From: Mycoplasma sp. SG1
GTDB lineage: Bacteria > Bacillota_I > Bacilli_A > Mycoplasmatales > SG1
Direction: 5' to 3'
Length of the DNA: 24,000 bases
Assembly: GCF_023612375.1 (NCBI RefSeq)
Contig: NZ_CP076852.1
Span: forward strand, 517,475 to 541,474
Under the pieces are notes generated by a model. The model saw nothing but the letters and a program-made list of their open reading frames with translations. It made no database searches and had not been told where the DNA came from. A program made the translations under genes and the position numbers. Position 1 is the stretch's first letter. Every line of letters begins with the position of its first letter. Below, in pieces: positions 1-21,711 of this stretch.

Positions 1-3000
1 TTTTTATAAAAATCAATAAAAATATTATTAAAATTAAAATATAGATTATTAATAAATTGGGATAATTTTAAGGAAATAGGATCTATCTCGCTATACAATA
101 AAATAAAAAAAATGATTTCAATATCTTTTTCAAAAATTAATTGAAATGTATCCAAAATCTTAGAACAATGTTCTCTTCTTTCATCATCTTTTACATCATT
201 CTTTATGAGTAAACTCAATAGTATATTTTTTAGTTCTATAGATTTAAAGTAATAAATTATTAATGACACGTTCTGAGATGATTTTATTTGAAATAGGCTA
301 TCTTTTAACTTATGCTCATTTATCACGGAAATTAAACTTTTAAAATTAAAAGGAGAAAGTTCGTTGTTTTTTAAAAAATTATTTAAAAATAATATTTTTT
401 GTTTTGGACTATAATTTAAAAATTCTTCTTCTGTTGTGTTTATTACCATATAGTCTGTTAAATTATGGACAGATGAATCTGAATCAATTGTTGAAGCCCG
501 CGGATACACCGCCTCTAGTCCTTGATTAAACTCTTTTTCCGCGACATCATTTAAAATGTTATTGAACGGTTCGTAGGAATAAGAAACTTTTTTACTGTTT
601 ACTGATTGAAATATTTCTAAATAATTTTTGATTAGATATTTACGTTCATTTACATATTGCTGATTATGTATGTATATATATTTGATAGCTTCTTCAAAAC
701 TATACCAACTTAAATAAGTTGCTAATAAATAAATAAATTTTTTTGAAAAATAATAATATTCAAGTATTTTATTTGAAGATTTTTGATTGATTTTCTTAAT
801 TTGTTTTATTAATTTATCAAATAAATGTTGAAAAGTTTTAAAATTATTTTCTTTTTTTAAATCAATGGCAAAAATAATGAATATAAAATAATAACTAAAA
901 GAAAAATCTGACTGTTGAACAGGAAATTGATTCAATATAGAATCCTTTATTTCTTTTGTTATTTGATTTTCAACTTGTAAAAAATAAAAATAAATTTTAT
1001 AAATTAGAATATTGTTTCATCAATCGTTTAAATTGATAGTATTGTATTTAATAAATAGTTTGTCTATTCCTCCAAATCCAATCTTTTCAATGACTTTATT
1101 AATTTCTAAAAAATCATCAAAACTAATATATTTATTAATGTCTATATCTAGTTTAGTTGTGATAGAATAATTTAATTTACTTTTGTTAATAAATATATCA
1201 ACTTTTGTTATATTAAATTCTAATTTACCGCAATGAATATTTAAAATATTTATTGGTAATAAATAATAATTATCTAATTGTCATTTTGTATCATACTCTA
1301 TTAATAATCTGGTTAAAATCTGATAATATATTTTCTTAATGTCAATATTCTTCGTTTTAAAATTACGTAATCTATACAGTATAAACAAAAATGTTTCGGT
1401 GTTATATTTATCTTCATCTTTTTCAGCTTGATAATTTTTTGAAACGATTTTTATGTCTTCAAATCATGATTTTTCCATTTGATTATTGTGTTTTCGAAAA
1501 TAATAATCAAAAAATAATCTAAAATTTATATTCCCGCTTACAGTTAATATATTGGTACAATGATACATTTTTTTTAAGTTGTCCAAAAGTTTTTTACTTT
1601 TACTATTAATAACATAATTAAGAATATCAATAAATGATTTACTATTGCTAACAAAATTACGAATTTCAGAATTATCTAACTTATTATTAATAACAAATTT
1701 TCAAAATTTTTTCATAAATTTATAACACTCATTGTTAAAAAAATCTTTATTAATGATTTTTAATAAAGATTTTTTTTCATTAAATAGTGAAATAATAAAA
1801 ATGATCTCTTTCTTATTTAATTTATGAAAAAAATTTTTAGATTGGTTGCTTGATTTAGAAATTAAATTATTAAAGTATTTTTCGGTATTAAATAAGTTTT
1901 TATTATCTTTTTTATTTTTTAGAAAGATATATTCCGAAAATTTAATAGAATTAATATCATTTATCAAGCTACATTGTTCGCATAGATAGTTTATTAAAGA
2001 AAAAAATATTCATATATTTTTTTGTTTTGAAATTATTTTAGGTGTATCTTTGAATACGTTTAATTTAAGAAATTTAAAATTTTTCCGAGCTTTTGAAAGC
2101 GGTGGCAATTTCAATTCATCAACTTCTAAAGTGTTTGTTTTCGTGCATTTATTAATGTTGTCCCATAAAACATAAAATAATGTTTTTTCTTGATTTGAAA
2201 TATTTTGTGCTTGAAGAAAACCCGTTATCTCAGATAAAAGAAAATTATCATTAAAACTACACCCGATGAATAAAAATATATATTCTTTTTTAATACATTT
2301 TTTTATAAAATTAACGAAATTTTTTGAGAAGGACTTATCTGTTTTTCATTTTTCAGTTAACCGTCGATTGGTATCAATTATATGACTATCATCGTTAACT
2401 ATAGTCCCATGAATAGGAACTATAATTTTTTCATTATTTGTACGAGGTATTTTTATATTTTCTATATTTTCTTCGTATTTTCAAGCTAGTCTTAATTCTT
2501 TTCCATTATCATAATTAAATATATCATCATAATTAATAGTTAAAATGGTATTAAAATGTTGATTTATTAATGGTAATATATTTAAACTAATTCCGCTTTT
2601 AACATAATCTTTATTATCATTTATATGTGAAACTAGCGATAATTCTTTTTTATAAAGTTGATTTAATCATACTCTTTCTTTCTCATCGGTACATTCCAAT
2701 ATTATATCTAAAATCTGCGAAATTGGTTGTTGAAGACAATCTTGGTTTAACGCATCTAAGATATTTTGTAATTTTTTTTTATCTTGAGATGTTGTTCCGT
2801 TATATAATCTGTCCTTAGTAATTATTATTAATAAGTTTTTTAAATTTGGTAAGCCAAAATTAGAAGAAAACCCAGCGCCCAAAAATAAAATAACTTTGTT
2901 TTCTACTATTTTTTTACTAATTAATTTCAAGTCGACAAAATATTTTGAATTTTTAATCGTTTTTTTTATTTTAGAATGATCTTTGTTGAATATCTCTGGA

Positions 3001-3005
3001 AGCAT
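1..3005 (-). CDS. Giant SIR2-family (SIR2_2-like, NADase-type) protein with a long helical C-terminal region. DSR2-like architecture. 3' end lies beyond the window start (>=1001 codons visible).
   Basis: ATG at 3005..3003 is preceded by an in-frame TAA (3014..3012). I translated the frame codon by codon from 3005 to position 3. There is no TAA/TAG, only TGA (plus-strand tca at 2667, 2481, 2346, 2010, 1701, 1464, 1281, 1020, 1017). Track ORFs 2667..3005 and 1701..1967 are in this same frame. SIR2 motifs: LFLGAGFS (G43-A44-G45), ILTINYDD (N158/D160, nt 2526..2540), VPIHGT (H199, nt 2409..2411), FLFIGCSFND (aa 245-253). The remaining ~740 aa are K/N/I/L/F-rich, with no Walker A and no other motif I recognise. 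Confidence 0.85.
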
Positions 3006-3057
3006 ATATTTTTAAAAAATTTATAAAGATTAAATTTAAGATATTTTTAAAAGACTA

Positions 3058-3633
3058 TTATTTTATCGGTTCAGATTCTTTACTTATAACTAAATCAAAA
3101 ATTAAAATAATTAAAAAGTATCCTAAACCAGCGATAACAAAGCAATCTGCGATGTTAAAATAACCAGCATGTAAATTAAATAATTGAAGATAATCAACTA
3201 CTCCATGATATTGAAATCTATCTAATAAATTACTAAAACCACCAACAAAAATCATTCCACAAGATAATTTATGAGTAAAGTCTTTCGTGAAAATAAAAGC
3301 TAAAAAGAATCCAATAATAATAATGAAAAGAATTACATAAACAGGAGTGCTAAAATTTCATAAAATACCACCAGCTAAACCTTGATTTAAAGCAAAACCG
3401 AAATCAAAAAATGCTCAAAAGCCAGTTCTATTTTGATGTCCTTGTCACCCTGGTTGATGATTGTGAAAAATTAATGATTTTAATACTTGATCGATTATTA
3501 ATCCAAATAATAAAAATATAGAAAGAAAAATAAAACATAAATATTCTTTTTTTAAGTATGTTCAATAAGAAAAAAAATAAGATTCGATCTTTCCTTTAAA
3601 TGAAGAAAATTTTTTATTTATCGGTGTTGACAT
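3058..3633 (-). CDS. lspA: Lipoprotein signal peptidase II (LspA)
   Basis: ATG at 3633, TAA at 3060..3058, 191 aa after reading TGA as Trp. C-terminal part reads GGFSNLLDRFQYHGVVDYLQLF...FNIADCFVIAG, matching the conserved N-x-x-D-R and FN-x-AD LspA motifs. The rest is hydrophobic TM segments. Confidence 0.9.
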
Positions 3634-4992: not shown

Positions 4993-7614
4993 TTAAAAGT
5001 TAAAAGAAGTTGGTAATTTTAAAATTGTTATATAGTTATAAAATCGGGGCAAATAAGTAATCATTCATCATAAAAAATTTTTAAAATATCTTAATTTTAT
5101 GTCATCTAAAATATCATTTAATGAAAGCGTGTTTTCTTTAGCACCTTTCTTGAAATGGAAATGAAAAAAAATATTTTTTGGTTTATAAAAATCTTTTAAA
5201 TTTTTATCTGAACATATATTTTTATCCATTTCAGAAAATCTATTTCTTATATGATCGTTTAGTATCTCTTTAAAAGAAATATCTAAATCATTAATATATA
5301 GTGTTGGAAAATTACAAATAAGGAAAAATTCTTTATCATTAGTTTTTAAATGTTTAAATGCCGCAAACTCATTAATCTTTTTTTCATAATCAATAAACTT
5401 TTTTAGTTTTTTAATAATTAATTCCTCAAAATTTAAGGACTGTAATAAAAATCAAATAGATCAGCTGGATCAACTGTTAATTTCATTACTTGTTCAAATT
5501 TTATTAATATTGTTCAAATATTCAAAAATAAAATCATCACTATGTTTATCCATGTCAAGTCTATCTGAGGCTTTGTTAAGGTTTTTAAGTTTTTTTAAAA
5601 TTTTTTTATATTGGGTTTTTTCTTTTTTATTAATTAAAAAAATAATTCCTTTGTTGTCATCAATATTTTGCGAGCTATAATCTTTCATCCATGGTTCAAG
5701 TAAATCTATTGATAATGAACATTTATTATTAAATTTAAATTTTTCTTTAAATTTTTCTAATGTATCAGAATTAATTTTACATCCTAATATAATTATTAAA
5801 TTTTTTGTTGTTTTTTTTAATTTTGTTAAAAACGCATGAGTTTCGTCTAATTGGTTAAAAATAAGCAGATAATCTAAAGAAACAATTTCAAACCCTAAAA
5901 TTCTTTTGTCGTTTGTTAAAATAAAATCTGGGGATTCGGATTTATAAATTCTATATTGATTAATATTTGATAATAAATGTTTGTTTGTTTTTAAAAAAGA
6001 ATACATTGGAATAAATTCATTGTTTATTGCTTTAACATAAGCTGAAACAGAATTATCATTAAACAATTTAAAACCTGATAATCCATTTATAGAATCTTCT
6101 AAAGGAAAAACAAATTCATCAAAAAAATTCTTTAAAAAGTCTTTATTAATTGATTCTTCATTTAACTTATTTAATAATTCATTACTTAATAACGGCTTGC
6201 AAATAAAATGCTTACCCTGTATATTAAAGTTTGGAGTAGTATAATATCGTGAAAATTTTATATCTTTTAAATAAGGATAAATTTTTTCAAAATCAAAAAT
6301 ATTTAAAGAATTAAAATATTTAATTTCATTGGAATTTAAATTTGATTTATCAAAAATTAAATAATATTTTTGATTTTTTATATCTTTAATTATTATTTTA
6401 ATGTTACACAATATATTTTTTACTTCTAAAAAGTATTCTTTATTGCTGATTAAACATAAAAAAGTGTTTAAAAGATTTAAAGGTTCATCTAAATCAAAAG
6501 ATTTATTACATACTTCGTTTTGGTATAAAATGGATGTATCGATTTGTTTTAAAAATCCTTTAAAAACAAAAATTTCTTTTCCTAGTTTAATATTAATTTG
6601 TTTTATTAGTTTATTTAAATCTATTAAATCTAATGAATTAATAAAATCAGTAAAATATTTTGGAAACTCAGTTTTTAATTCAAATGGTTTATTAGTTATC
6701 GGATGAATAAATTTTAAATAATAGGCGTGTAAAAATTGGCTATGATAATTTTCATCTCTTATTAATAAAATTTCATTTTTTATAAATAAAATGTTTTGTT
6801 TAAAAAATGGATTATAAACTTTATCAGCAAAAACAGGACAATTAATTGCTTTTAAATGAACCCTTATCTGATGAGTAGATCCTGTTTTTATTTCAGCTTC
6901 AACTAAAACCAAAGAATATGGTAAATCTTTAATCTTTTTAAAATAAGTAATTGATTGTTTACCTGTTTCAGCAACTATTTTTTTAGCAAAATTTCTTTTA
7001 TCATTGCTAATCGGCAAATTAACTTCAAGCGTGGAATTTTTAATTTTACCTTGACAAATTACATAATATTTTTTTTGAATTTGATGAGTTTTAAAATATT
7101 CAAAAAACTTTTCTGCAGCAGAATTGGTTTTTACAATAATCAATAACCCTGTTGTATCTTTATCAAGGCGATGAACTATTCCATCGCGATTTTGACCACA
7201 AATTTCAGCTAATGGTTTTTTTAAATAATAGAAAAAATAATTGTAAACCGTTTTAAGGGTCTTTAAATTAGGATCATAAACAATAATATCCTTTGGTTTA
7301 TCGATGATCAAAAAACTTTCATCTTCAAAAAGAATTTTAATTTCAAAGTTAGAAAAAATCTCATCCCAATTAATTTCTTTAGAATGATCAGGAATTAATT
7401 GATCATCTATCGTTCAATCTATCTTAATCGAATCATTTAAATTAACCAAAAAACTTGGAGTATTTTTTTGATTTTCATTTACCAAAACCCCATATGTTTT
7501 TATTCATTTAACAATTTGTGTTCTTGAATAATTTTTTAAAGTATTAAAGATTAACAAATCTAATCTAATTGATTTTTGATCTTCGTTTATAAAAGTTTTA
7601 TTAATCTGAATCAT
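4993..7614 (-). CDS. rluD: RluD/RluA-family 23S rRNA pseudouridine synthase (S4 + PUS domains, aa 1 to ~328) fused in frame to a ~545-aa extension of unknown function. 873 aa under code 4.
   Basis: ATG at 7614 with an upstream in-frame TAA. N-terminus reads IRLDLLIFNTLKNYSRTQIVKWIKTYGVLVN (S4-like). HRLDKDTTGLLIIVKT carries the catalytic Asp at nt 7162..7164. Also KTGSTHQIRVHL and LHAYYLKFIHPITNKPFEL. The frame stays open past the standard-code stop at 5494 (TGA) down to TAA at 4995..4993, with no TAA/TAG over 873 codons. Confidence 0.85.
6627..6666. repeat. Gene-internal copy of the direct repeat (partner of 4856..4895)
   Basis: Encodes FPKYFTDFINSL, the last conserved residues of the RluD domain. 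33/35 identity to 4861..4895. Confidence 0.8.
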
Positions 7615-7758: not shown

Positions 7759-10506
7759 TTATTTTATAACTTTATGACAAGATTGACAAATTTCACCGAC
7801 CATTTCTGATGCTTTAAAATATTTTCAACAACGAAGACATTTTATTTTTTGACTATTTTTAATGTAAAAATAACAATTTGAAACATTTATGAATTTATCA
7901 TTTAAATCTGCTTCAGATTTAAAAAATATTTCTCTTACAGTTAAAATTTGTGAAAGATTATCAATTGATTGAATTTGATTAAATTTTTGATCTTTAAAAA
8001 TTACTTCAATTTCAGCTTCTTGTCAAACTTTAATAATTTGATTATTTTTAGCTTCTTCTAAAGCTTTATTTAATTCTTTTTTGAAAAGAATAAAATTGTC
8101 TCATTTTTGTTCATTAATAGAAACTTGAGGTAGTCTTAAATTAGCAAAAGTTTCTAAGAAAATAGTTTCTTTTTTATCTTCTTTTTGAAAGACTTGATAA
8201 AACTCTTCTGCTGTTAATGATAAGATTGGGGCAAGAAAAAGTAAAAAATGATCAAGAATATAGAAAAAGACAGTTTGAATTTGTCTTCGTCTTAAAGAAT
8301 CTTTGTTTTCAATATAAATAATATCTTTAGCAAAATTTAAATAAAAAGCGCTTAAAGTGGTTGAAAGAAAATTTTTTAACAATTTTAGATTTGAATTAAA
8401 AGCAAAATTTTGCATATTTGTTTGATAAAGATCTTTTAAATTTTTTAAATTAAATAAGATATATGTATCTACTTCTTCAAACTCAGTAACTAAATCACTT
8501 TTATAATCAAAATCAACTAAATTTGTAATTAAAAAACGAAGTGTATTTCTGATTTTTTGATAATCATTTTTAATAACTTTAGTTATTTCATCTCCTAAAC
8601 GAATATCAACTAAAAAATCAACTGATGCTGATCATAATCTTAATATATCAACACCGTTTTCTTTTAAGAAAGTTTCAGGAGCGATAATATTTTTTAGCGA
8701 CTTAGACATTTTATGCCCTTTGCTGTCTAAAACAAACCCATGTGATAAAATATTTTTAAAATTTATTTGCGTTTTAGAGTTAGTTTTATTTCAGATTGTA
8801 GAAGTAATTAAAGAGGAATTAAATCACCCTCTAAACTGATCATTTCCTTCAAGAATTAAATCAATATCAAGATTAGTTTTTGAATTAAGACTAAATAATA
8901 AAAAAAGAAAAGCAATTCCTGAATCAAATCAAACATCAAGAATATCTGTTTCTTTTTCAAGATCTTTATATTTAACTTTAAGTTGCTTTAAAGTTTTTGA
9001 ACTTAAAATATCTTCTATTTTGTTATTAAATCAAAATAATATCCCTTTTTCTTTGATAACTTCGATAATTTCACTAATAACATCTAAATCTAAAATTGCT
9101 TGTGTTTTATTTTTAGTAAACAAAATTGGAATCGGAAGGCCTCATTTTCTTTGTCTTGAAATACATCATGATTGTCTTTCTTTAATCATGTTTAATAACT
9201 TATTTTGACCTAATGGCGCAAAAAAATTAATTTTTTTAATTGTATCAAGAATCTGATCTTTAACCTTATTGATATCAATAAACCATTGTTCTTTAACTAA
9301 ATAAACAACCGGTTTTTTAGTTCTTCAATCGTGCGGATATGAATGATTAATCGTTTTAGATAAAAATAAAGTTTTGTTTGTTTCAAGGTGCTTTAAAATT
9401 TCTAAACTTGCTTTTTCATAAAATAAAGCATGAAAATGACTGTCAGGATAATGAATAAAACCGTGATCATCAATAACTGAAAAAATGTTCAATTTATGTT
9501 TTTTTGCTAATGAATAATCATCTTCACCATGTCCTGGAGCAATATGAACAATCCCTGTTCCTTCGTTTTCAACAACATGATGACTTAAATAAACTTTATA
9601 AATTTTCCTATCTATAGGATGATGATAAGAAAAAGTTAAGATATCTTTAATTGCGATATCTTTAATAATTTTTGTTTGATAAGATTGAAAAAGAGGATTT
9701 GAAGTAATTAAATTTTTATTAATAATAAAATAACCAAACTTATCATCTTTAACAAGACAATACTTAATTTTGTCATTAACAGCTAACCCTTGATTTCCTA
9801 ACAAAGATCAAGGGGTTGTTGTTCAAACAAGAAATGAAACTGCTTCATTTTTAAATCGAAAATTACTAATCTTAACTAAGAAAAAAAGCGAATGAGATGG
9901 TTTATTCAAATATTCAACTTCAGCATCCGATAAAACCGTTTTTGAAGATCAAGATCAATAAATTGGTCTTAGATCACGATATATTAATTTTTGTTGAACT
10001 AAAATTTTAAAAAAATCTAATTCATAAGAAATGTATTTTTGATCTATAGTTTGATAATATTTACTAAAATCGCTTAATAAACCAAGCTTTAAAAACTGTT
10101 CTTTTTGATTTTGAATTTGTTTTTCAACATAGCAATACGATGATGAAAAAAATTGTTCTAAAGAAAATGTTTCGCTTTTTAAATTATCTTTAACCTTTTG
10201 TTCAATTGGTAAACCATGACAATCCCAACCTGGTAGATAATTTATTTTTTTGTTATTTAATAACTGATAACGAAGAATAATATCTTTAAGAACTTTATTT
10301 AGCGCGTGACCAATGTGAATATCACCGTTTGCATAAGGTGGTCCATCAAGTAATGTATACTCTTTTCGCGAAGTAGTTTTTGATTTTAATAATTCTTGAA
10401 AATTGATTTTTTGATAATATTGAGCAATTCTTGCTTCAAGTTCAACTAATTTCGCTTTCTGATTGACAGGGGATGTAAAAATATTTAAGGTTTTAAAATA
10501 ATCCAT
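7759..10506 (-). CDS. ileS: Isoleucine--tRNA ligase
   Basis: ATG at 10506, TAA at 7761..7759, 915 aa. All four track fragments share one frame, and I scanned the gaps for TAA/TAG and found none. HIGH motif ([16 protein letters not shown]). KMSKS motif (HKMSKS near 8701..8718). C-terminal zinc-finger cysteines (CLRC..., CQSC). Confidence 0.95.
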
Positions 10507-10614
10507 CGAATTTAATCTAGAAAATTTAATGTATTTATAGTGCTTTATAAATTATAGATTAATACATAAGAAAAATATATAAAAATCATTTATAAAAGAA
10601 ACCAAAAACCTTAT

Positions 10615-10860
10615 TTATTTTTTTGGAAGTTTCTTAAGAAGGTCGTGATTTAGAAGTTTGGTTTCAATGCAATAATCAATGATTTTATTGACTTCATTTT
10701 GAATTTCATTGCTATTGATTAAAAGATCAATTCTTGTTAATTTTTTTAACTTTTCTTCTAGTTTAGAAATTTCTTCTTTTAAAATTTTTAGTTGATAATT
10801 ATGTTCAATAATTTTTTCTTCTAACTTGTTAAGCGCTGCTTTATTAGAAAAAATACCCAT
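10615..10860 (-). CDS. 81-aa coiled-coil protein of unknown function, translationally coupled to sepF
   Basis: ATG at 10860 lies 1 nt after the sepF stop; real TAA at 10617..10615. Heptad-like LNKLEEKIIEHNYQLKILKEEISKLEEKLKKL. Confidence 0.6.
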   Translation of the reverse strand: MGIFSNKAALNKLEEKIIEHNYQLKILKEEISKLEEKLKKLTRIDLLINSNEIQNEVNKIIDYCIETKLLNHDLLKKLPKK

Positions 10861-10861
10861 G

Positions 10862-11233
10862 TTAGTATTCTTTATCGCCTAAATATTGCGTATAACCAAT
10901 ATTGTTTGGTGAAAGAAGAAAAATTCCGCTTTCAATTTTGTTGATTTGTCCATCAAGTGAATAGATAATTCCGCTTAAAAAATTAATGATTTTAATGTAG
11001 TTAACATCTTTTTTATCAAAACGTGATAAATTGATAATAACACTTTTTTTATTTTTTAAGTTATCAGCTACTACGACAACATCATCAAAGCATCTTAATT
11101 CAAATGAAGATATTTGATGTTTAGATTTTTTTGAAAAAATTTTAAAACTGTTGTCGTGGGCACTTGATTTAGATCATGCTGTTTCTAGTGGTGTAAAAAT
11201 TGATTGATCATACTTCTTGTTAAAGATAGCCAT
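10862..11233 (-). CDS. sepF: Cell division protein SepF
   Basis: ATG at 11233, TAA at 10864..10862, 123 aa with one TGA-Trp, so it is absent from the track. Core FELRCFDDVVVVADNLKNKKSVIINLSRFDKKDVNYIKIINFLSGIIYSLDGQINKIESGIFLLSP matches the SepF/DUF552 pattern. Located directly after ftsZ. Confidence 0.8.
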
Positions 11234-11261
11234 ATTAACTCCTTGAAATTTTTAATTTTAT

Positions 11262-12515
11262 TTATCTTCTTAAAAATGATGGAATGTCATCATCTGCATC
11301 ATCAGATTCTACATCGTGATTATCTTGAGCATCAAATTGTGGTTCTTGTTTTGAATAAACATTCATTGGTCTTGTTCAATTTTGGTTTTGTTGTTGACTT
11401 GAACGAGATGCTCATGGACTTTGTTGTGGTTTGTATGAAGATTTATTGAATTGTTTTTTATTACGTGGTGAATTGATTAACTCTTTTCTTTTTTGTCTTT
11501 CTGCATAAATGTTATCATAGTTAGGATAAATAATTGCTGATTCATCAAAACCAGTAGCAATAACAGTCACAATTACTTCATCTTCTAAAGCATCATTAAC
11601 AGCGACCCCAAAGATAATATTTACATCATTTGAAGCAGTGTTTTTAATAATGTCAACCGCATCATTAGCATCAAATAAAGTCATCCCTTGACCGCCTGTA
11701 ATATTAACAATTGCATCTTTAGCTCCAACGATAGAAGCTTCTAAAAGAGGTGATGCAATCGCTTTTTTAGCGGCTTCTTCAGCTTTATTTTCGCCTTTAG
11801 CAGCTCCAATTCCAATTAAAGCATACCCTTTTTGTTCCATAGTTGCTTTTACATCAGCAAAGTCAAGATTAATTAAAGAAGGAACAGCAATTAAATCAGT
11901 AATTGTTTGAACCCCTTGTCTTAAGATTTTATCTGCTTCTTGAAAAGCTTCTTTTAGTGGTATAGTTCCGATAACTTCAAGTAATTTATCATTTGAAATT
12001 ACGATTAATGAATCAACATATGATTTTAATTCTCCAAGACCAAGTTCTGCATTATCAAATCTTGTTTTACCTTCAAAAGTAAATGGTTTGGTAACAATTC
12101 CAATTGTTAATGCTCCTGTATCTTTTGCTAATCTTGCAACTGTTGGCGCAGCACCTGTTCCAGTACCTCCACCCATTCCAGCAGCAATGAAAACCATATC
12201 TGCTCCTTTAACAGCTTTTTTAATTTCATCTTCTGATTCAATTGAAGCTTCACGTCCTTTTTCTGGATTTGCTCCTGCTCCAAGACCTTTTGTTACGTCT
12301 TTCCCAAGGACAATTCGATTACGAGCTTTTGAGGCTGAAATTACTTGTGAATCTGTGTTAACAACTCAAAACTCTACTCCTTGTACCCCTTCTTCGATCA
12401 TACGGTTAACAGCATTACAACCGCCGCCGCCTACTCCGAAGACTTTAATTGTAGCAACGCTTTCAAACGGATCGTATTGAATTACTTTGCTATCTATTTT
12501 ATTATCTGTTTTCAT
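11262..12515 (-). CDS. ftsZ: Cell division protein FtsZ
   Basis: ATG at 12515, TAA at 11264..11262, 417 aa. [16 protein letters not shown] and the tubulin signature [14 protein letters not shown]. After TGA read-through the C-terminus ends [10 protein letters not shown], the conserved FtsZ C-terminal peptide. Confidence 0.97.
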
Positions 12516-12535
12516 GGTTTTTTGTTTTTTTTAAT

Positions 12536-13816
12536 TTAATTCTTTCTTAATAATTGTTGAAATTTGTTGTTTTTTTGACTTAGTTTTAATATTTTTAGGT
12601 TTAAAGTGTTAAAAATTCGTTCTTTTAGTGATTTATGTTTTAGTGAATTAATTTTATGATCGCTGACATAATTTACCATATTTTGATATATACCAATCCC
12701 AACCACATTACAGTAAATAGGATTTTTTACACCAATATAAGTAGATTTATAAATTTTGTAATTAGTAAAATAATTTTCTTTTTCAAAAAAGCAATCTAAG
12801 CCTTTAATAGCACTTCCGCCCCCTGTAATAATGATTTTAAATTTATCACTATCACCATGTGTTAATTCTCTGATTAATTCTGTAATTTTATAGAAAATTT
12901 CTTTAGTTCTTCAATAAACTATTTCTTGCAATTTATCTTCATCAATTAATGGTTGTCCATCGGTTGAATATAAAACTTTGAAATCATTGTTCAAAAGAAA
13001 ACTATCTTTATCTTTATTGATATTTAAATAGCCAGCTTTTAAATCAGCATAACGAAGTTTTAATAATTCAATGTTTTTGTCACCAACGTCTTTTATTAAA
13101 TATTTGATATCTTTATTAATTGAATTTGCACCCATTTTAAGAACGCGATAATCAACTAATAAGTTTTGGTGAAATAAAGATATTTTAACAGACTCTGCTC
13201 CAAAATCTACGATTACACATCCATCTTTTAAATAAGTTTTGTTGGCTACTTCATAAGCGGTTGCGTATGCTTCTAAACAAAAATTTGAAACCGAAATTTT
13301 TGCTTTTTTAAAGATCTCAAGTAAACGATAATATGTTTTAAAATTACCTAAGTATACAAGAGAATTTAAATATAGTTTTTGGATTTTTTTACCAATTGGT
13401 GGGATCAGGGTTCTATGATGGTCATATTCATAACTTTCTGGAATCAAAGTCAAAAGGACATTATCATTTAAACCGTTTAGTTCCTGAGAATATCCAATTA
13501 ACTTCGCTACATCTTCAACTTCTAAAGTCTTGTTAATCAATATTCCACGTTTGCTCTGCTTTATTTTACAGTTAATCATTGGGAAGTTTAAAATTACATT
13601 ATCAACAGTATAGTCTAAAGTTTTTTCGCAATTTTTTACTGCATATTTAATAATCTCAACCAATAATTCATCATTGCAAATCTCGCCATTAACATTCATA
13701 ACTTTTGCTCTTTTATAGTATGTTAAGATTGGATCTACATGATTTTGAGAAATTTTTATTACAGCAAATTTAACACCGCTAGTTGAAATGTCAAATGTTG
13801 CATACATTTTATTCAT
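12536..13816 (-). CDS. ftsA: FtsA-like actin-fold cell division protein
   Basis: ATG at 13816, TAA at 12538..12536, 426 aa. Actin-fold motifs: FDISTSGVKFAV (phosphate 1), VDFGAESVKISLF (phosphate 2), IIITGGGSAIKGL (adenosine). Sits between rsmH and ftsZ. Confidence 0.8.
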
Positions 13817-13843
13817 AAATTCTCCTTTTTAATTCCTTCATTT

Positions 13844-14800
13844 TTATTTTAGTTTTTGAAAAGTTCATAACTTAGCTGAACTTGCTCTTTTGTTGGTGAT
13901 CACCTCGCTAAGAGATGGTAAAATTGGTTTTTTGTTAATAAGTTTATAACATTCAACTTCTTGATCTATAACTGGTAATTTATATAACTTTGGATTAGGT
14001 TTAAAAGCTTTAAAAAAGTTTTTTAAAACCCTTTCTTCCAATGAATGAAAAGTAATGACAATTAAAAGTCCTTTGTTTTTTAATAATTCTCAAATTCCTT
14101 TCAATCCATCTGAAAAGACATCTAATTCTTTATTAACTTCAAGTCTTATCGCTTGAAATAGCAACTTTACATACTTTTTAATTTGGACTTCAGAACCAAA
14201 AACAGTTTTTCGAACAATTTCAGTTAATTGTTCTGAACGAGTTATTCCCTCTGCTTTACGATAATGAATTATCTTATTCGCTAGTTTTGAACTAAAAAGG
14301 CCCAAACCATATTTTTTGAAAATTCCAATTAATCTTTCGTTTGAATATCTATTTAAAATATATTGAGCATTAACTTTGCTAGTAGTGTCCATTCTCATGT
14401 CTAACAAACAGTTTTGGTTGTAAGAAAAACCGCGCTTTAAATCATCAATTTGTAAACTTGAAACCCCTAAATCAAAAAAAGCAACATCAATTTTAAAAAT
14501 ACCCTGTCCTAATAAATAACTTTTGACATCAACATATGATTTGTTAATTAATTTAAAATTTGAAAATGGTAAATTAATTAAGTTCTCTGTGCAAACATCA
14601 ATTGCTTCTTTATCAAGGTCAAAACCAAAAAGAAATCCTTGATCATTAAGCTTTTCTAAAATTAATTTAGCGTGCCCTCCCAAACCTACTGTACAATCAA
14701 CAATTATTGGATCTTTATCAACTAAATTTTGGTTGAATAAAATATCCATAACTTCGTTTGTTAAAACTGGTACATGTCTTTTGTAATTGATTTGATTCAT
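13844..14800 (-). CDS. rsmH: 16S rRNA (cytosine1402-N4)-methyltransferase RsmH (MraW)
   Basis: ATG at 14800 overlaps the mraZ stop (TAATG). TAA at 13846..13844, 318 aa. HVPVL, VDCTVGLGGH, FDLGVSSLQIDD, and after a TGA ITFHSLEERV are typical RsmH motifs. Confidence 0.93.
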
Positions 14801-15291
14801 TAAAGATTTATTTTTTCTTCAATACTTTCAGCGTTTGATATTTCTTGTTTTTGAAGTTCAAGAAATTTAGATTTTTTAAATAACTGAATATAACTCCCCA
14901 TTCCGACAAAAACAAGATCTTTTTCAACGTCTAGTTCTAAACTTTTAAAAAAATTGTCGCTTAGAAGTAAACGATGTCTTTTGTCTAATGTCGCTTTTTC
15001 AATACTTCCGAAAAATGAACGTTTATATATTCTATTATTTTGAACATTTTCTGGTAGATCTGAAATTTGTTCACTTAATTCTTTGTATTTAATTTCTGGA
15101 AAAATATCAATACATTTATCAGAAGTTGCCCGAACTTTTAGAAAAAGGTTAATTTCTCTAGGTCCGTATATATGTGTTAAAGATTCATAGATTTTTTTTG
15201 GTAAATTAAATCTGTTCCGTTCATCTAAAACGCCATAATATGTTCCTGTTAAGTAAATTTTGTGATCTGACTCCTTTAAATTTATGCTCAT
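14800..15291 (-). CDS. mraZ: Transcriptional regulator MraZ
   Basis: 163 aa with two SpoVT/AbrB-like halves carrying the D-x-x-x-R motif (LDERNRFNLPKK and LDKRHRLLLSDNF). First gene of the dcw cluster. Confidence 0.9.
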   Translation of the reverse strand: MSINLKESDHKIYLTGTYYGVLDERNRFNLPKKIYESLTHIYGPREINLFLKVRATSDKCIDIFPEIKYKELSEQISDLPENVQNNRIYKRSFFGSIEKATLDKRHRLLLSDNFFKSLELDVEKDLVFVGMGSYIQLFKKSKFLELQKQEISNAESIEEKINL

Positions 15292-15342
15292 ATTAAATAT
15301 TTTAATTACCTAATGGTTTTTTGGAGCAATTTATTTCTATTT

Positions 15343-15830: not shown

Positions 15831-17444
15831 TTATTCTTTTAATATTTCAACATCATTATTTTTTTCAATTTTGGCAATTGATGGTATTTCTTGTTCATCT
15901 TCATGATTATAATCATCGTTGTGAAAATGTTTAATTTTTCTTGAATGTTTTAACAATTTTTCCATCGTTAAATTTCGAACATTAAAATAAAAGTCAATCA
16001 TTACTACCAAAGCTAAAATAAAGTCAGTTGTTGGAAGGGAAAGAAAAATAAATAATTGATCTTTATCTCGAAAGATAAAGTAATAGATTAAAGAAACAGG
16101 TACATATAAAATAATAAAACGAAGAAAAGTAATAAAAATAGCTTTTTTGTAACGAAGGGTTGATTGATAATAAGAAATTGGAATAAAACTACATGAAATT
16201 AATGGGAAAAAAATAAAGGTATATCTTAATGCCTTCGTTGCATAATTAAAGACTACATCATTAGGATCAACAAAAATAGTTACTAAATAAGGAGCGAGTG
16301 CTAAAACCAAAATTTCAACAACAATTAAATAAACAAACATCATCGCAAACGAGATTGAAATTGATTTTTTAATTCTATCAAGATATTTTCTAGCTAAATT
16401 ATGTGATGTAAACATATTCATTCCTTGCAAGAATCCGAAAATAGAAATGGTGAAGAAAGTTAAAAATGGAGTTACAGCCCCAAAAATCGAAACAAGACTA
16501 TGATCAGGGAGTTTCGATCCCGCAATATTTTGCGACATATGCGATAAAATAATGTTAAAAATATAATACGCTACCCCTTGTAAAGAATTTCTAAACAATG
16601 ATGGAAGCCCAAAAATAATCAAAGTAATAATAATACTTTTTGAAATTTTTCAATGTCTGAAATTTATAGCATCGAAAAAAACTCATAAATCTTTTACAAT
16701 CGCACAATAAATTAAGGAAATAAAAAATTGCACAACTCAACATATTGCAGTCGCTATGATTGTTCCTAAAACCCCAGAATGAAAGACTTTTACAAATAAG
16801 ACATCTAAACCGATGTTCAGCAATGAACAGATTAAAGTTATAGACATAGAAACCATCATAAAACCTTTTGTTCTGATAGTTCAAATGATGATATTAGAAA
16901 CATAATAGAAAAAAATGCCAAATGTTCAAGTTCAACAAATTCATTTCGAAATACTTGCAAGTTCTAAATCTTTCGGATCAGATCCATTAATTTGTAATTG
17001 AATAAAAATCTTACTAAAGGATAAAGCAAAAATTAAGAAAAAGATAATAATAATTAAATTGATGAATAAACTATTACCCAAAGTTGAAACAGCATTTTTA
17101 CGATCTTTTCTACCAAAATGAAATGATAATGAATTAGAAAGACCCCCCGATGAAATAGCCAATCCTGCTACAATTAATGTATAGTATGGAAGACAAACTT
17201 GAATAATTGTTCGAATATCAGAAGAAGTTAAATCAAATCCATAACCACCTGCACCTCATTGTTTTCCAGGACCCAATTTAATAGCAATTATCTGATCAAT
17301 AATGGTATACAAACTGTATATCGCCATTGAAATAGATGCTGGGATAACTATTTTCAGAAGAGAAACTAAAACGGATTTATGAAAAAAAATATCTTCTGAG
17401 TTAGTTTTTTTTCTATATTTTAATTTATTTAAGCATTTAAACAT
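15831..17444 (-). CDS. MATE/MOP-superfamily (MatE-like) polytopic membrane transporter, copy 1
   Basis: Fragments 17256..17444, 16941..17162 and 15831..16622 are in one frame. I scanned the gaps and they hold only TGA. 537 aa, multi-TM. The N-terminus LLKIVIPASISMAIYSLYTIIDQIIAIKLG resembles the MATE N-terminal signature. Hydrophilic acidic C-terminal tail. Confidence 0.7.
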
Positions 17445-17659
17445 CGTAATCCTAACTCAAAATGATAAAAATTTAATTTTATCGATTAAATTTTAGGTTT
17501 AAATTTTATTTTAGTAATACATAAAAGTTTATAAACCATTTACATTTTATCGATCAATTAATGATATGAATCGTAAATGAAATATAAACTTTATAGTATA
17601 AATACAAGAATTATTATATTAAAAAATATTTTTAAAAAACAAATAATGCGCTTTATTTA

Positions 17660-19180
17660 TTAGTTTTCAATATCATCGTTTGGATGATGAAAAATAATAG
17701 ATTTTGTAACATTAACACTATCACTGATATTAATTTTATCAAAGATATTCATAAGTTTGTTAACTTGAAATTGACTAACATCAAAATAAAAAGGAACGAT
17801 ATAACAAAGAATAAAAATTAAATCACAGATTGATAATGATAAGAAAATAAATTTTAAAGACATAGATCCTGTAAATTGATTAACAACAAGTAAAAAAATT
17901 AACGAAATAACTAAAAAAATCATACAACGAACCGTGATTGTTCAAATTGATTTTATATAAAGAAAAATTGATTCATAGAATGAACTTATCAAGATCGTAA
18001 GACCAAACAACGGTAGTAAACAAAAAGAATAAATCAAAATACTTTGTGCATCATGTAAAGATTGATGATAATTACTTAAATTTGTATCTAAATAAATTGA
18101 TACAAAAAAATCAGAAAATCCAAGTAAAAAGGCTTCTATGATTAACGCTGAAATGATAATAAAAACGATTGATAACTTAGCAGCGTCCCTTACTCTTTTG
18201 CTTTTATTTCTGCCAATGTTTTGAATAATAAAAATATTAACCCCTTGCACAAAACCTGAAATATATCCCATGATCACAAACATGTAGGAAGAAACAATAC
18301 TAAATAAACTAATTCAATAAAGATTGGTATAAACGACAGTATGAGATATTGCTAAAATAATGTTGAAAAAAAATAAACAAGCCCCTAATCAAACATTTCT
18401 AATCAGCGATGAAATACCATATAAAAATGAATTTCATGACAGATTGTGATCTATTTTTAAATTATTGTTTAAAAAAGAACGACTTATATCATTTGTTTTA
18501 AGAAAGAAAAGAACTAAAATTGTTAAATAAAATTGAAAAATAATAGCAATCGCTGTTGCTATAGCTGTTCCAAAAAGGCCATACTTATAAACAATTAAAA
18601 AAACCAAATCTAAAGCTATGTTAATTGCAAAAGATACTGCTGGAACAAGTGAAGTTAAAATATTTCAGCCCCTAATTTTTAAAACAACTAAAAAAATATT
18701 GCTAAAAAACTGCAGAAAAGAAGTAATCGCTAAAAGTCATGCCATATATTTAGCAAGACCCAAAAGGACGGGATTAGTCAACCCTTGCATCTTTAAAAAA
18801 ATATTCATAAAACTGAAACTGAAAATAACATACCCAACCCAAATCATAAAATGGACCGTTATGCTATTACCAAGGTTTTTATAAGCTTTGCTTTTTTCGC
18901 CTTTTGATAAAGAAAGACCAAAACTGTTAGATAACGAAGTTGCTCCAGCGAATAAAATTGAAGTAATAAATAAATACAATGGGGTTAAAACTTGAATAAT
19001 ACCCCTTATTTCTTCTCCTGATAAGTTATAACCACTAATAATCAGTTGATGCTTACCGGTTCCGAATTTAATCGCTAAAATTTCATCAATAATCCCAAAT
19101 GCAGCAGCTAAAAAAGCAGATAATGCTGTGGGAAGAGAAACTCTTATTATTGATGATGCTACAGATTTTGTATGATACAC
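17660..19180 (-). CDS. MATE/MOP-superfamily polytopic membrane transporter, copy 2 (paralogue of copy 1). Start codon uncertain.
   Basis: Fragments 18737..19180, 17942..18283 and 17660..17923 share a frame; the 18284..18736 gap was scanned and is free of TAA/TAG. N-terminus SIIRVSLPTALSAFLAAAFGIIDEILAIKFG parallels copy 1. There is no in-frame ATG between the pheT stop (19237) and this region. The nearest start is GTG at 19180; ATT/ATA codons lie further upstream. Confidence 0.65.
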
Positions 19181-19236
19181 GCTAATATTTTCTCAATCTT
19201 TATTATGATTGGGTTTTGGTGTTATTATAAAAATAA

Positions 19237-21711
19237 TTACCGAATTAAATAATTTAGTTTTTTTGTCAAAACATCTATAACTTTATCTTCGATTTTTTTT
19301 ATTTTATCTCTGCTAAACGTTTCGTCAATTGGATAAATTGTAATTCGAATACTGTATGATAAATTATCTGTAGATGGTTTAAACAAATCAATTAATTTAA
19401 TTTTAAACTTATATTGAAGAACATTTTTTAAAATCTTATTAATTTCATCTAATGTTTCATTTACTGGTTTTCAAGGTTCTTCGCTTTTTAAGAAAAATGA
19501 AAAATCTCGATCTATAGAAGGCACCGATGGAAATGGAACAAACTCTTTATTATTAGAATCAGAAACACACTCTTCAATTAAAGATAAATTAAATTCAGTG
19601 AAAATAACTGCGTTTTGAAATAAATCTATTTTAGAAGATAAAGCGTTTGAAATTAAAACTTGTCCAATAATACCGATTAAAATATTGTTGTAATAAATAA
19701 AAATCCCACTTTTAAAATATTTTTTTAAATCTACTATTGTCTCTTTATTTTCTAAGAAAAAAGGTTTAACCGTTAATTTATTAATATCTAAATCAACAAA
19801 TTTACAATAATTTTTATAAATTGATTTTAACAAATAGGTATCAATGATTTGTGTTTTCTTAACTGGAGAAAAAGTATTAATTCATTCTCCATAACTAATA
19901 GTTGAAACTAAAGTATTTTTAACTATTTTGATTTCTGAAGCTTGATAGTAAATATCACTTATTTCAAAGATATTTAAATGATTAATCTTATTCGCTAAAT
20001 TGTAAACTAAAGTTTGGAAAAGAAAATGAAATAAAGATAGTCGATAATATTTTGAAACCGTTTTATTTTTAATTTTTAAAGGAATTAAAAAATTAAAAAA
20101 ATTAATAGTTGAACATTCATTTGAAACCAAAGAATAAGTAACAACTTCTGTAAAATTATTGGCAAGGAAAAAGTTTCTTGTTTTAGATTGCATTAATTGT
20201 TCATAATTTTGTTGATATGGAATAAAATCAAAACTTGGAGGCAGTGATTCAACTTTATTTAAATCGACAAGAAATCTAATTATTTCTTCAAAAAGATCAT
20301 TTTCGTTTTTAACATCCAAACGATGAACTGGAGGGGTAATTTTAAATCTAACATCTTTTGATTGGAGTTTTTTAATTTTAAAATTTAATTTATAAAAAAG
20401 ATCTCTAACTCTGGTCTGATCTAACTTACAATTAATTACCTGCTCTGCTTTATTTAAATTTAAAATAATTGGATCTTGATTTTTATCAATTGGTCTGTGC
20501 AGGGAATGAATAAAAATTCATGGTGAATAAATAGTAAAAGTTCTTAAATATCTTCTTAAGAAATATATAAAAATGCTATTTGTTAACTGATAATGAAAAC
20601 TATGGATAAAATGTTTAGTGTACATTGAATTACTATTTTTATTTTGATAAACAAAATAGTTTTTAACCGTTAAAGGATCTAATTCTAAGTATTCAAATAA
20701 AAAGGTATCACTTGCTAAGGTCGCTGCGCATTTATAGTTTAGATTTAGACCAGCTAAAGCAATCGGTGTTTGTTTGTTTTTAATCACTATACCTTGATTT
20801 AAACTGATCTTGTTTTCTTTTGAAATTTGAATCCATTCATCTGTTCTTTGAAAACTGATATTAAATGGTGAAGTTATTTTTTTAAAATCATAAACTTGAA
20901 TAGGAGAACCACCGATGAAAGATGCAATGGTTGCGATATCTGAAATAAAGTTATTTGGCGTAATATTATTATTTAGAAGAAGGATTTGAAGTTCTAATTT
21001 AGATCTAAAATTATTTTTTAATTCGATTAGTTGATAAATCACTTGACTACATTTTTTAGTTTTTAAATTAACGTTAAAATTAACATCTGGTTTTTGATAC
21101 AAACTAGGGAAGTTTTTTAAAGATTGAATAATTTTAGGAAATAAATATTCAGTATCCAATTTAACTGATAATTCGTGTGCTAGAACTGCAACTGCATTCA
21201 AATCAGGACGATTAGATGGATTTGAGAAAATAAAAATCGTATCTTCGAAATATTTTGGATTAATAATACTTCCGACATCTAATTTTTTATCTAAGATAAT
21301 AAAACTGTTCCATTTTTTATAAGTAATATTTAGATTTTTGAATGTTCCGATTTGAGCATCCACTTGTTGGTTATTTTTTAATTTAGATAAAGGGGTTGTT
21401 GTTTTATCTGTAATTAAAAGAAGAATTTTTTCATTTAAAATAAGCGAAATATCATCAACAGTATCATTAAAAAAATAAAAATTAACTTGTTTGTTTGATC
21501 CAATTTTAACAGTACAGTTATATAACTTTTTTGTCGCTTTTGATTTAGTGTAATTTATCAATTTCCCGATGATCAAATTGTTATTTAATGGCGATAAGGA
21601 AACTGTTTTTTCAAAATCAATCCCAAGACTGATTAATCCTTTAACAATTGTTTTATCAGAGATATCGTCAAGATCTAAGAAATAATTTAAAAGTTTTTTT
21701 GATACTAGCAT
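19237..21711 (-). CDS. pheT: Phenylalanine--tRNA ligase beta subunit
   Basis: ATG at 21711, TAA at 19239..19237, 824 aa. Three track fragments are in one frame, with the gaps checked. Immediately follows pheS (2-nt gap). Identification rests mainly on position, size and a typical PheT N-terminus (MLVSKKLLNYF...). Confidence 0.85.

Follow-up and report, generated by a model that had tools for sequence, protein, structure and literature searches.

A predicted two-module SIR2 immune protein of Mycoplasma sp. SG1 with a long helical region that occurs fused or as a separate partner

SIR2 enzymes that consume nicotinamide adenine dinucleotide (NAD+), here termed NADases, are among the commonest anti-phage effectors. 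Their gating is understood in few cases, which include DSR2 (activated by a tail tube protein), ThsA (activated by a cyclic ADP-ribose isomer signal), SIR2-HerA, and SIR2-pAgo. Depletion of NAD+ upon infection has been reported for the DSR proteins with an N-terminal SIR2 domain and also for ThsA, SIR2-HerA, and SIR2-pAgo (bioRxiv 10.1101/2021.12.14.472415). The long C-terminal region of DSR2 is reported to bind the phage trigger (PMC10981675; PMC11850899). Here, we describe a SIR2-family gene of Mycoplasma sp. SG1 located at the left end of a 24,000-nucleotide (nt) stretch of contig NZ_CP076852.1 (622,852 bp), hereafter the window, which was translated with genetic code table 4. The encoded protein of 1330 amino acids (aa), WP_250328584.1 / URM53175.1 (P0001 in our alignments), is annotated by NCBI as 'SIR2 family protein [Mycoplasma sp. 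SG1]'. That SIR2 defence is common was already known, as was the name given to the domain by the automatic NCBI annotation; the new elements are the putative sensor family and its fusion or fission.

We propose, with a probability of about 0.6, that this gene encodes a two-module SIR2 immune protein in which a helical sensor gates the depletion of NAD+. The protein would reside in the cytoplasm, with residues 1–483 forming a ThsA-type SIR2 NADase followed by a small helical domain. Residues ~484–1330 would form an all-helical module that keeps the NADase inactive until it is bound to a component of an invader, either a phage or another mobile element. The released NADase would then deplete NAD+ and arrest the infected cell, as has been described for DSR2, DSR1, ThsA, and SIR2-HerA. 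Where related mollicutes encode each module as a protein of its own, with coupled translation, the SG1 protein would correspond to an effector subunit fused to its partner subunit.

The gene is read on the minus strand from an ATG at 3003–3005 and stays open to the left edge of the window, giving 1001 codons (3005 to 3) without TAA or TAG. The in-window translation is 100% identical to residues 1–1001 of WP_250328584.1, and the remaining 329 codons extend past the left edge. Both the length of the frame (at least 1001 codons) and its exit from the window had been noted in a first-pass annotation of the same DNA and are borne out. The GC content ranges from 18 to 30% in the window and is ~20% in the SIR2 gene region. 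In the five alternative frames of the same 3 kb, TAA and TAG make up 8.0% of the codons (1 per 12.5), so that 1001 open codons would arise by chance with a probability of ~1e-36. The longest rival open reading frame (ORF) in this region has 119 codons. Read with table 11, the frame contains nine stops, every one of them TGA (codons 113, 175, 220, 332, 435, 514, 575, 662, and 663), and its in-window tryptophan codons are these nine TGA and two TGG. The first-pass count of nine is therefore right, while the even spread that it described is not, since all of them fall within the first two thirds. The GC content at third codon positions (0.16) and the TGA:TGG ratio of 9:2 match those of the neighbouring SG1 genes. 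These host-like values speak against recent acquisition of the gene from a donor that uses the standard code and agree with the earlier view of a gene adapted to code 4.

A 1330-codon frame kept open in DNA of 20% GC can be counted as a probable sign of selection. This bears on the possibility that the gene is an inert remnant, intact in appearance and heading for decay, which would be in keeping with a relative that is a pseudogene (L002, see below) and with the lack of visible defence neighbours around the SG1 copy. A remnant would have to keep 1330 codons open where the other frames meet a stop every 12.5 codons, and all of the catalytic motifs are intact. Also, three independent intact copies at 36–59% identity imply long purifying selection. 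We consider an inert remnant very unlikely.

The N-terminal module has a defence-type SIR2 fold with intact catalytic motifs. Pfam SIR2_2 (PF13289) matches residues 153–282 with 45.2–49.1 bits, where the curated cut-off is 24.5 (E = 1e-11 to 8e-13), and is the sole Pfam family reported at E ≤ 10. The four SIR2_2 motifs named in the first-pass annotation (GAGFS, TINYD, PIHG, and FIGCSFND) are all in place, and its numbering of the catalytic positions, N158 and H199, is correct. In the alignment of the family, N158, D160, H199, G248, S250, and D253 are invariant even after the addition of two distant SIR2 proteins for comparison, P0006 (a true ThsA-like SIR2+SLOG protein) and P0007. A profile of three SIR2 domains of the family retrieves ThsA from the PDB (7uxt, E = 6e-8; 6lhx, 2e-6; 8bto, 8e-6). 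In the profile alignment, TINYDD lies over 'TTNYD' and PIHG over 'YKMHGD' of ThsA, which makes N158 and H199 the counterparts of ThsA N112 and H152. The asparagine equivalent to N158 reads alanine ('TTAYD') in the BcThsA entry 8bto, which fits a residue mutated by the depositors. In DSR2, the equivalents of H199 and N158, H171 and N133, are needed for NADase activity (PMC10981675). The module is predicted to be an NAD+ glycohydrolase, and by sequence its SIR2 domain is nearest to the ThsA type.

The search of residues 1–310 with PADLOC models matches LmuA-SIR2 (PDLC03856, E = 7.8e-13), ThsA (5.7e-8), generic SIR2 (1.2e-7), and Dsr1 (0.0054), and every one of these models describes a SIR2 effector of some defence system. 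An AlphaFold2 (AF2) model of residues 1–483, made from a six-sequence alignment, has a mean predicted local distance difference test (pLDDT) score of 62 and a predicted template modelling (TM) score of 0.54. It places Rossmann strands at residues 38–42, 153–156, 193–197, 243–247, and 277–281. Against the PDB, Foldseek matches the model to ThsA (top entry 8bto), DSR2, KomC, and SIR2-HerA with E = 4e-6 to 1e-4 and TM scores of 0.3–0.44. The comparison with published ThsA and DSR2 structures suggested in the first-pass annotation is thus positive, and the nearly equal matches point to a defence-type SIR2 fold without discriminating the subfamily. The full-length protein gave no match at E ≤ 10 in a phmmer search of the PDB sequences, and a scan against NCBIfam returned noise only.

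The region from residue ~330 to 1330 has no Pfam match at E ≤ 10, no PADLOC match, and no match among the PDB sequences even with the family profile. The first-pass annotation had asked whether the C-terminal part might have a housekeeping function; these ~1000 residues show neither a housekeeping domain nor another known one. The helical module has homologues in P0002 (43% identity) and P0011 (36% identity) and none besides, and it appears to be a sequence family not previously described. No Walker A motif ([AG]x4GK[ST]) and no GK[ST] was found by regular expression in P0001, P0002, or P0011. The SG1 protein also has no membrane segment, with a highest 19-residue hydropathy of 1.49. Both results agree with the earlier statement that no P-loop or transmembrane motif follows the SIR2 domain. 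Secondary structure assigned by DSSP to a low-confidence AF2 model of the C-terminal module (pLDDT 37) is 65% helix, in 45 helices with a mean length of 12 aa and a longest of 26 aa. The module may therefore be helical and possibly a solenoid, as far as such a model can suggest. The first-pass description of a helical repeat is plausible at this level of confidence; a self-BLAST search reveals no internal sequence repeats.

Mycoplasmas are host-associated, and NADase toxins occur in other pathogens, so a virulence factor directed against NAD+ of the host has to be weighed as well. The N-terminus of the SG1 protein, which reads MLPEIFNKDHSK, contains neither a signal peptide nor a lipoprotein box. 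Together with the lack of a membrane segment and of similarity to known secreted toxins, this makes a host-directed NADase highly improbable.

The relatives of the protein have been sought with phmmer, by which residues 131–1330 were compared exhaustively with 1.84 billion representative proteins, and afterwards with a profile. The phmmer search found four proteins (SG1's own, P0002, P0003, and P0004), and the profile search added P0005. Four loci of the family were found, i.e., SG1, L001, L002, and L008. The contigs of the relatives are Logan assemblies of 20–24% GC in which TGA is read as tryptophan, and the SRA runs concerned are SRR21069115, SRR5642295, and SRR5644274. The DnaK, DinB, and MnmA sequences of these contigs also fall into singleton clusters, in the case of DnaK at 90% identity. 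Searches of the JGI metagenomes and IMG/VR with profiles of the B module (see below) and of the SIR2 domain gave no close relative, only generic SIR2 domains at 22–27% identity. Phage and plasmid collections searched with tblastn contained no match either.

At L001 and L008, the homologue consists of two genes. Gene A (482/485 aa) encodes the SIR2 domain with a helical bundle, and gene B (845/851 aa) encodes the rest; at L001, these are P0003 and P0002, respectively. In the alignment, A and B are jointly colinear with the whole SG1 protein, which sets the module boundary. The two loci share 59% identity between the A proteins and 54% between the B proteins, both ORFs are intact, and the flanking DNA has diverged. 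In both loci, the stop of gene A and the start of gene B lie inside 'ATGTTTAA' (L001, 7230–7237; L008, 1829–1836). The overlap is preceded by TAGGAGA, with AGGAG positioned 9 nt upstream of the ATG of gene B. The A–B arrangement is that of a conserved and, as far as its sequence tells, translationally coupled operon.

Other causes of the split have been considered. A genetic-code artefact was rejected, as the split persists in table 4, comes with its own AGGAG and ATG, and recurs in two loci that are 54–59% identical. A sequencing error was rejected as well. A programmed +1 frameshift at GTT-TAA is less likely than translational coupling; coupling is preferred because AGGAG at 9 nt before the ATG has the spacing of an initiation site. 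The split at the same codon in two loci, with the ATGTTTAA overlap and AGGAG, suggests that the parts function as partners, joined in SG1 in the manner of a 'Rosetta-stone' fusion. The SG1 gene would have arisen by fusion of two partner genes, or else the split forms by fission, and the modules would cooperate in both cases. From the fused and split forms, a physical complex of effector and sensor is predicted. The single-gene system of the first-pass annotation therefore holds for SG1 and fails for two of the relatives, which have a two-gene operon.

The two-gene layout also raises the possibility of a selfish addiction module of the toxin–antitoxin kind, in which a SIR2 NADase toxin is restrained by the helical partner and the pair is kept since its loss kills the cell. 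The translational coupling in L001 and L008, the patchy distribution with decay, and the NADase-type catalytic residues would all fit such a module. However, we know of no precedent for an antitoxin of 850 aa, and addiction relies on a difference in stability between toxin and antitoxin that the covalent fusion in SG1 abolishes. Also, the known SIR2 proteins with long extensions are sensors of infection (bioRxiv 10.1101/2021.12.14.472415). An addiction module is unlikely on balance, and the immune protein with a gating sensor remains our preferred reading.

The three loci with informative flanks (SG1, L001, and L002) lie in three unrelated neighbourhoods; the L008 contig, at 4.4 kb, extends hardly beyond the genes themselves. 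In L002, a SIR2 fragment at 9850–10981 (plus strand) lies between clpB and mnmA. This relic has a frameshift at GAGFS and has lost everything after residue ~380, and the catalytic asparagine and histidine are still legible. In L001, the pair adjoins a 478-aa AAA_21/OLD-TOPRIM ATPase, a 304-aa protein without a match, a truncated AlwI-type restriction enzyme (E = 1e-64), and dinB. The PADLOC matches of the ATPase are mad8, AriA, Old, GajA, and PtuA (E = 1e-4 to 2e-11), with a weak match of the OLD-type TOPRIM part; the ATPase and the 304-aa protein may form a second, separate defence system. The gene is rare and, to judge from these loci, shifts between genomic contexts. The first-pass annotation had raised universal conservation among related mycoplasmas as a point to check, and the search returned only three relatives, in differing contexts and with one of them decayed. 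Rarity, positional mobility, one set of defence-island neighbours, and one decaying copy are as expected of an accessory immune gene, and the same four traits exclude a core gene.

In SG1 itself, the upstream neighbour on the same strand is lspA (signal peptidase II; Table 1), as the first-pass annotation had said. From the lack of a terminator-like site and of a convincing promoter in the 52-nt spacer between them, the two genes may be transcribed together. This arrangement, the housekeeping neighbourhood, and the native codon usage would suit a regulatory or housekeeping enzyme of sirtuin-like type (a deacylase or an ADP-ribosyltransferase), co-expressed with lspA and acting on cellular protein substrates. 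Against it, the protein belongs to SIR2_2; the canonical sirtuin family PF02146 gives no match at E ≤ 10, and the zinc-ribbon cysteines are absent, with a single CxxC in P0001 (residue 342) that is not conserved in the relatives. The gene is also missing from essentially all other sequenced mollicutes, and its relatives occur in unrelated contexts, one of them decayed. A sirtuin-like enzyme of this kind is quite unlikely.

Several observations weigh against the immune reading. The AF2 model of residues 480–1330 was made from an alignment of two sequences only and, at pLDDT 37, is unusable as a fold. The Foldseek matches of that model to the HEAT-type proteins CAND1, CRM1, and mTOR are non-significant (E > 0.004, TM < 0.2) and do not constitute evidence; DSR2 is absent from its top 50 matches. 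No PADLOC system model recognises the full-length SG1 protein. All 14 of the visible-side neighbours in SG1 are housekeeping genes, with no defence island, and the defence-island argument depends on one 10-kb contig, L001. Finally, we know of no phage of Mycoplasma sp. SG1. Set beside these points are the catalytic motifs, the module boundary, and the accessory behaviour of the family described above.

A wider proposal, to which we would give somewhat less than even odds, is that the four loci, which are mollicute-like in their low GC and use of code 4, represent an undescribed SIR2 immune system. The helical partner of ~850 aa would be a new sensor family, occurring both as a separate protein and as part of a fusion, and would recognise a component of a mycoplasma phage or integrative element. 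Literature searches on Mycoplasma sp. SG1 and on SIR2 defence in Mollicutes or mycoplasma found no description in the searchable literature. If this wider proposal is true, no abortive-infection system based on NAD depletion would, to our knowledge, have been described before in wall-less bacteria with near-minimal genomes, and the gating of SIR2 NADases could be studied on an effector and a sensor that are compact and genetically separable. The locus adds a putative sensor module without detectable relatives beyond its own family, and the fused and split forms mark the domain boundary. That a genome of ~620 kb retains an accessory gene of 4 kb bears on how much immunity near-minimal cells retain and on how mycoplasma chassis strains are designed. 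Even without a role in defence, there would still be an unexplained and strongly conserved giant ORF around an apparently active NADase.

Table 1. Coordinates of the SG1 gene, its parts and neighbours in the window, and of features at related loci.
Feature	Sequence	Position	Strand	Basis
SIR2-family gene WP_250328584.1, codons 1–1001 of 1330	window	1..3005	-	table-4 translation; 100% identity over 1001 aa
SIR2_2 domain (defence-type sirtuin / predicted NADase), aa ~26–320	window	2046..2930	-	Pfam, PADLOC, PDB profile, AF2, Foldseek
GAGFS, glycine-rich NAD-binding loop, aa 43–47	window	2865..2879	-	sequence; invariant in family and ThsA-like P0006
TINYDD, aa 156–161, catalytic-position N158 and D160	window	2523..2540	-	sequence; invariant
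PIHG, aa 197–200, catalytic-position H199	window	2406..2417	-	sequence; invariant
FIGCSFND, aa 246–253, fourth SIR2_2 motif	window	2247..2270	-	sequence; aligns with ThsA 'FLFVGFSFTD'
Helical extension of effector module, aa ~327–481	window	1563..2027	-	AF2 helices, pLDDT 64–88; colinear with C-terminal third of P0003 and P0005
Fusion point, aa 482–484	window	1554..1562	-	split site of L001/L008; SG1 reads through, without AGGAG
Orphan helical module, aa 485–1001 in window (to aa 1330 outside), presumed sensor/scaffold	window	1..1553	-	homology to P0002 and P0011 only
Intergenic spacer between lspA and SIR2 gene, 52 nt	window	3006..3057	-	no terminator-like site, no convincing promoter
lspA (signal peptidase II), upstream housekeeping neighbour, outside the system	window	3058..3633	-	Peptidase_A8, E = 2.9e-19
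AAA_21 ATPase and 304-aa protein, just upstream of SIR2 pair	L001	2910-5497	+	Pfam/PADLOC
Truncated AlwI-type restriction enzyme	L001	194-1183	-	profile match
SIR2-plus-helical protein	L003	10037-13129		PADLOC: SIR2 part only
SIR2-plus-helical protein	L004	9992-13084		PADLOC: SIR2 part only
SIR2-plus-helical protein	L005	10004-13090		PADLOC: SIR2 part only
SIR2-plus-helical protein	L006	9846-12713		PADLOC: SIR2 part only

The visible-side neighbours of the SG1 gene, identified with Pfam after translation with table 4, are lspA, an aldo/keto reductase, a long RluD-like gene, ileS, sepF, ftsZ, ftsA, rsmH, and mraZ, followed by rpmF, a MatE transporter, pheT, pheS, rpmB, and rmuC. All of them are on the minus strand except rpmB, and pheT has been named from the position and length of its ORF alone. 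Scans of the window for transfer RNA genes and Rfam families gave nothing.

Some of these neighbours have features of their own. An ordinary RluD has ~300 aa. The RluD-type pseudouridine synthase at 4996–7614 (minus strand; S4 and PseudoU_synth_2 at residues 17–255) has 873 aa, including a C-terminal extension of ~550 aa without a Pfam or PADLOC match, and its GC content of 0.21 is unusually low, as in the SIR2 gene. Polytopic membrane proteins are encoded by two neighbouring genes on the minus strand, a MatE-family transporter at 15834–17492 (E = 8e-19) and, at 17663–19282, a protein that was scanned from an internal methionine and has no Pfam match at E ≤ 1e-5. A minimal division cluster, mraZ-rsmH-ftsA-ftsZ-sepF, occupies 10865–15309 (minus strand) with no peptidoglycan genes in between, in keeping with the lack of a cell wall in mollicutes. 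Immediately after this cluster come ileS, the rluD-like gene with its extension, the aldo/keto reductase gene, and lspA.

Among the known SIR2 systems, DSR2 of B. subtilis 29R (PDB 8wkx and 8wy8), with its tail tube trigger, is the one to which the SG1 gene had been likened in the first-pass annotation. The two proteins share an N-terminal SIR2 domain with equivalent Asn/His residues (N133/H171 in DSR2, N158/H199 in SG1), a very long and mostly helical region that follows in the same polypeptide, and a SIR2 fold matched by Foldseek at E of about 1e-5. The gating of NAD+ depletion by a sensor region would be a further likeness, which at present is proposed only. However, neither the full SG1 protein nor residues 1–310 match a Dsr2 model of PADLOC at E ≤ 10, and DSR2 chains are absent at the same threshold from the search of the PDB sequences with the family SIR2 profile. 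DSR2 has ~1000 aa compared with 1330 aa in the SG1 protein, the relatives of the latter are split in two genes, and its C-terminal module has no detectable similarity to any protein outside its own family. DSR2 forms a tetramer, and its SIR2 domain is followed by a MID and an alpha-solenoid CTD; on the SG1 side, the low-confidence model of the C-terminal module offers ~65% helix and non-significant HEAT-like matches for comparison. DSR1 is likewise one large protein with an N-terminal SIR2 domain, and its PADLOC profiles, with 1248–1275 positions, are closer in size to the SG1 protein. On the other hand, the Dsr1 match (E = 0.0054) is marginal and covers the SIR2 part only (residues 35–256 against profile positions 20–223 of 1275). 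Membership in DSR2 is not upheld by these matches.

ThsA (6lhx, 7uxt, and 8bto) has the closest SIR2 domain by sequence, with PADLOC ThsA matches of 5.7e-8 to 2.9e-13. In contrast to the SG1 protein, ThsA binds its ligand through a SLOG/STALD domain at the C-terminus and acts together with the TIR protein ThsB. After residue 282, the SG1 protein has no match to SLOG (PF18185) or any other Pfam family, and the region is helical in AF2; P0006 aligns with the family over the SIR2 domain only. No TIR gene was found beside the SG1 gene on the visible side, nor near L001 or L008.

In the case of Lamassu, the SIR2-type LmuA is the best PADLOC model for the N-terminal module. The match lies mainly in the SIR2 part, covering profile positions 5–214 of 433 in SG1 and 4–300 in P0003. 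Lamassu, too, consists of several genes, one of which encodes a large partner. However, LmuB is SMC-like, while the B modules have no Walker A motif (3 of 3), and their predicted helices are short (mean 12 aa), unlike long coiled coils. For the lack of a Walker A motif, the B module has been rejected as an SMC/LmuB-type or a HerA-type ATPase. As for the HerA ATPase and pAgo/APAZ partners of SIR2-HerA and SPARSA, the B modules have no PADLOC or Pfam match and no P-loop.

The same layout of a ThsA-type SIR2 domain and a long helical region is found in proteins of ~950–1030 aa from Flavobacteriaceae and Clostridia (L003–L006). The hhalign comparison with proteins of this type has a probability of 97.7% (E = 1.4e-12, residues 21–264), but the similarity stops with the SIR2 domain and the long C-terminal regions are unrelated at the profile level. 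These proteins, whose hosts are Flavobacteriaceae and a Defluviitaleaceae metagenome-assembled genome (MAG), appear to be unclassified DSR-like proteins. An identity of 95% between two of the copies, from a Flavobacteriaceae MAG and from Algibacter sp. PT7-4, points to a recent transfer.

By these comparisons, the SG1 protein falls outside DSR1, DSR2, Thoeris, and Lamassu at the sequence level and is not demonstrably a member of DSR1 or DSR2. The family label of the first-pass annotation has been given up, together with the single-gene layout as a general feature. The kind of system that it recognised is retained, namely an accessory, predicted SIR2 NADase of the defence type joined to a large non-enzymatic region, and the SG1 protein would be DSR-like in its proposed way of working.

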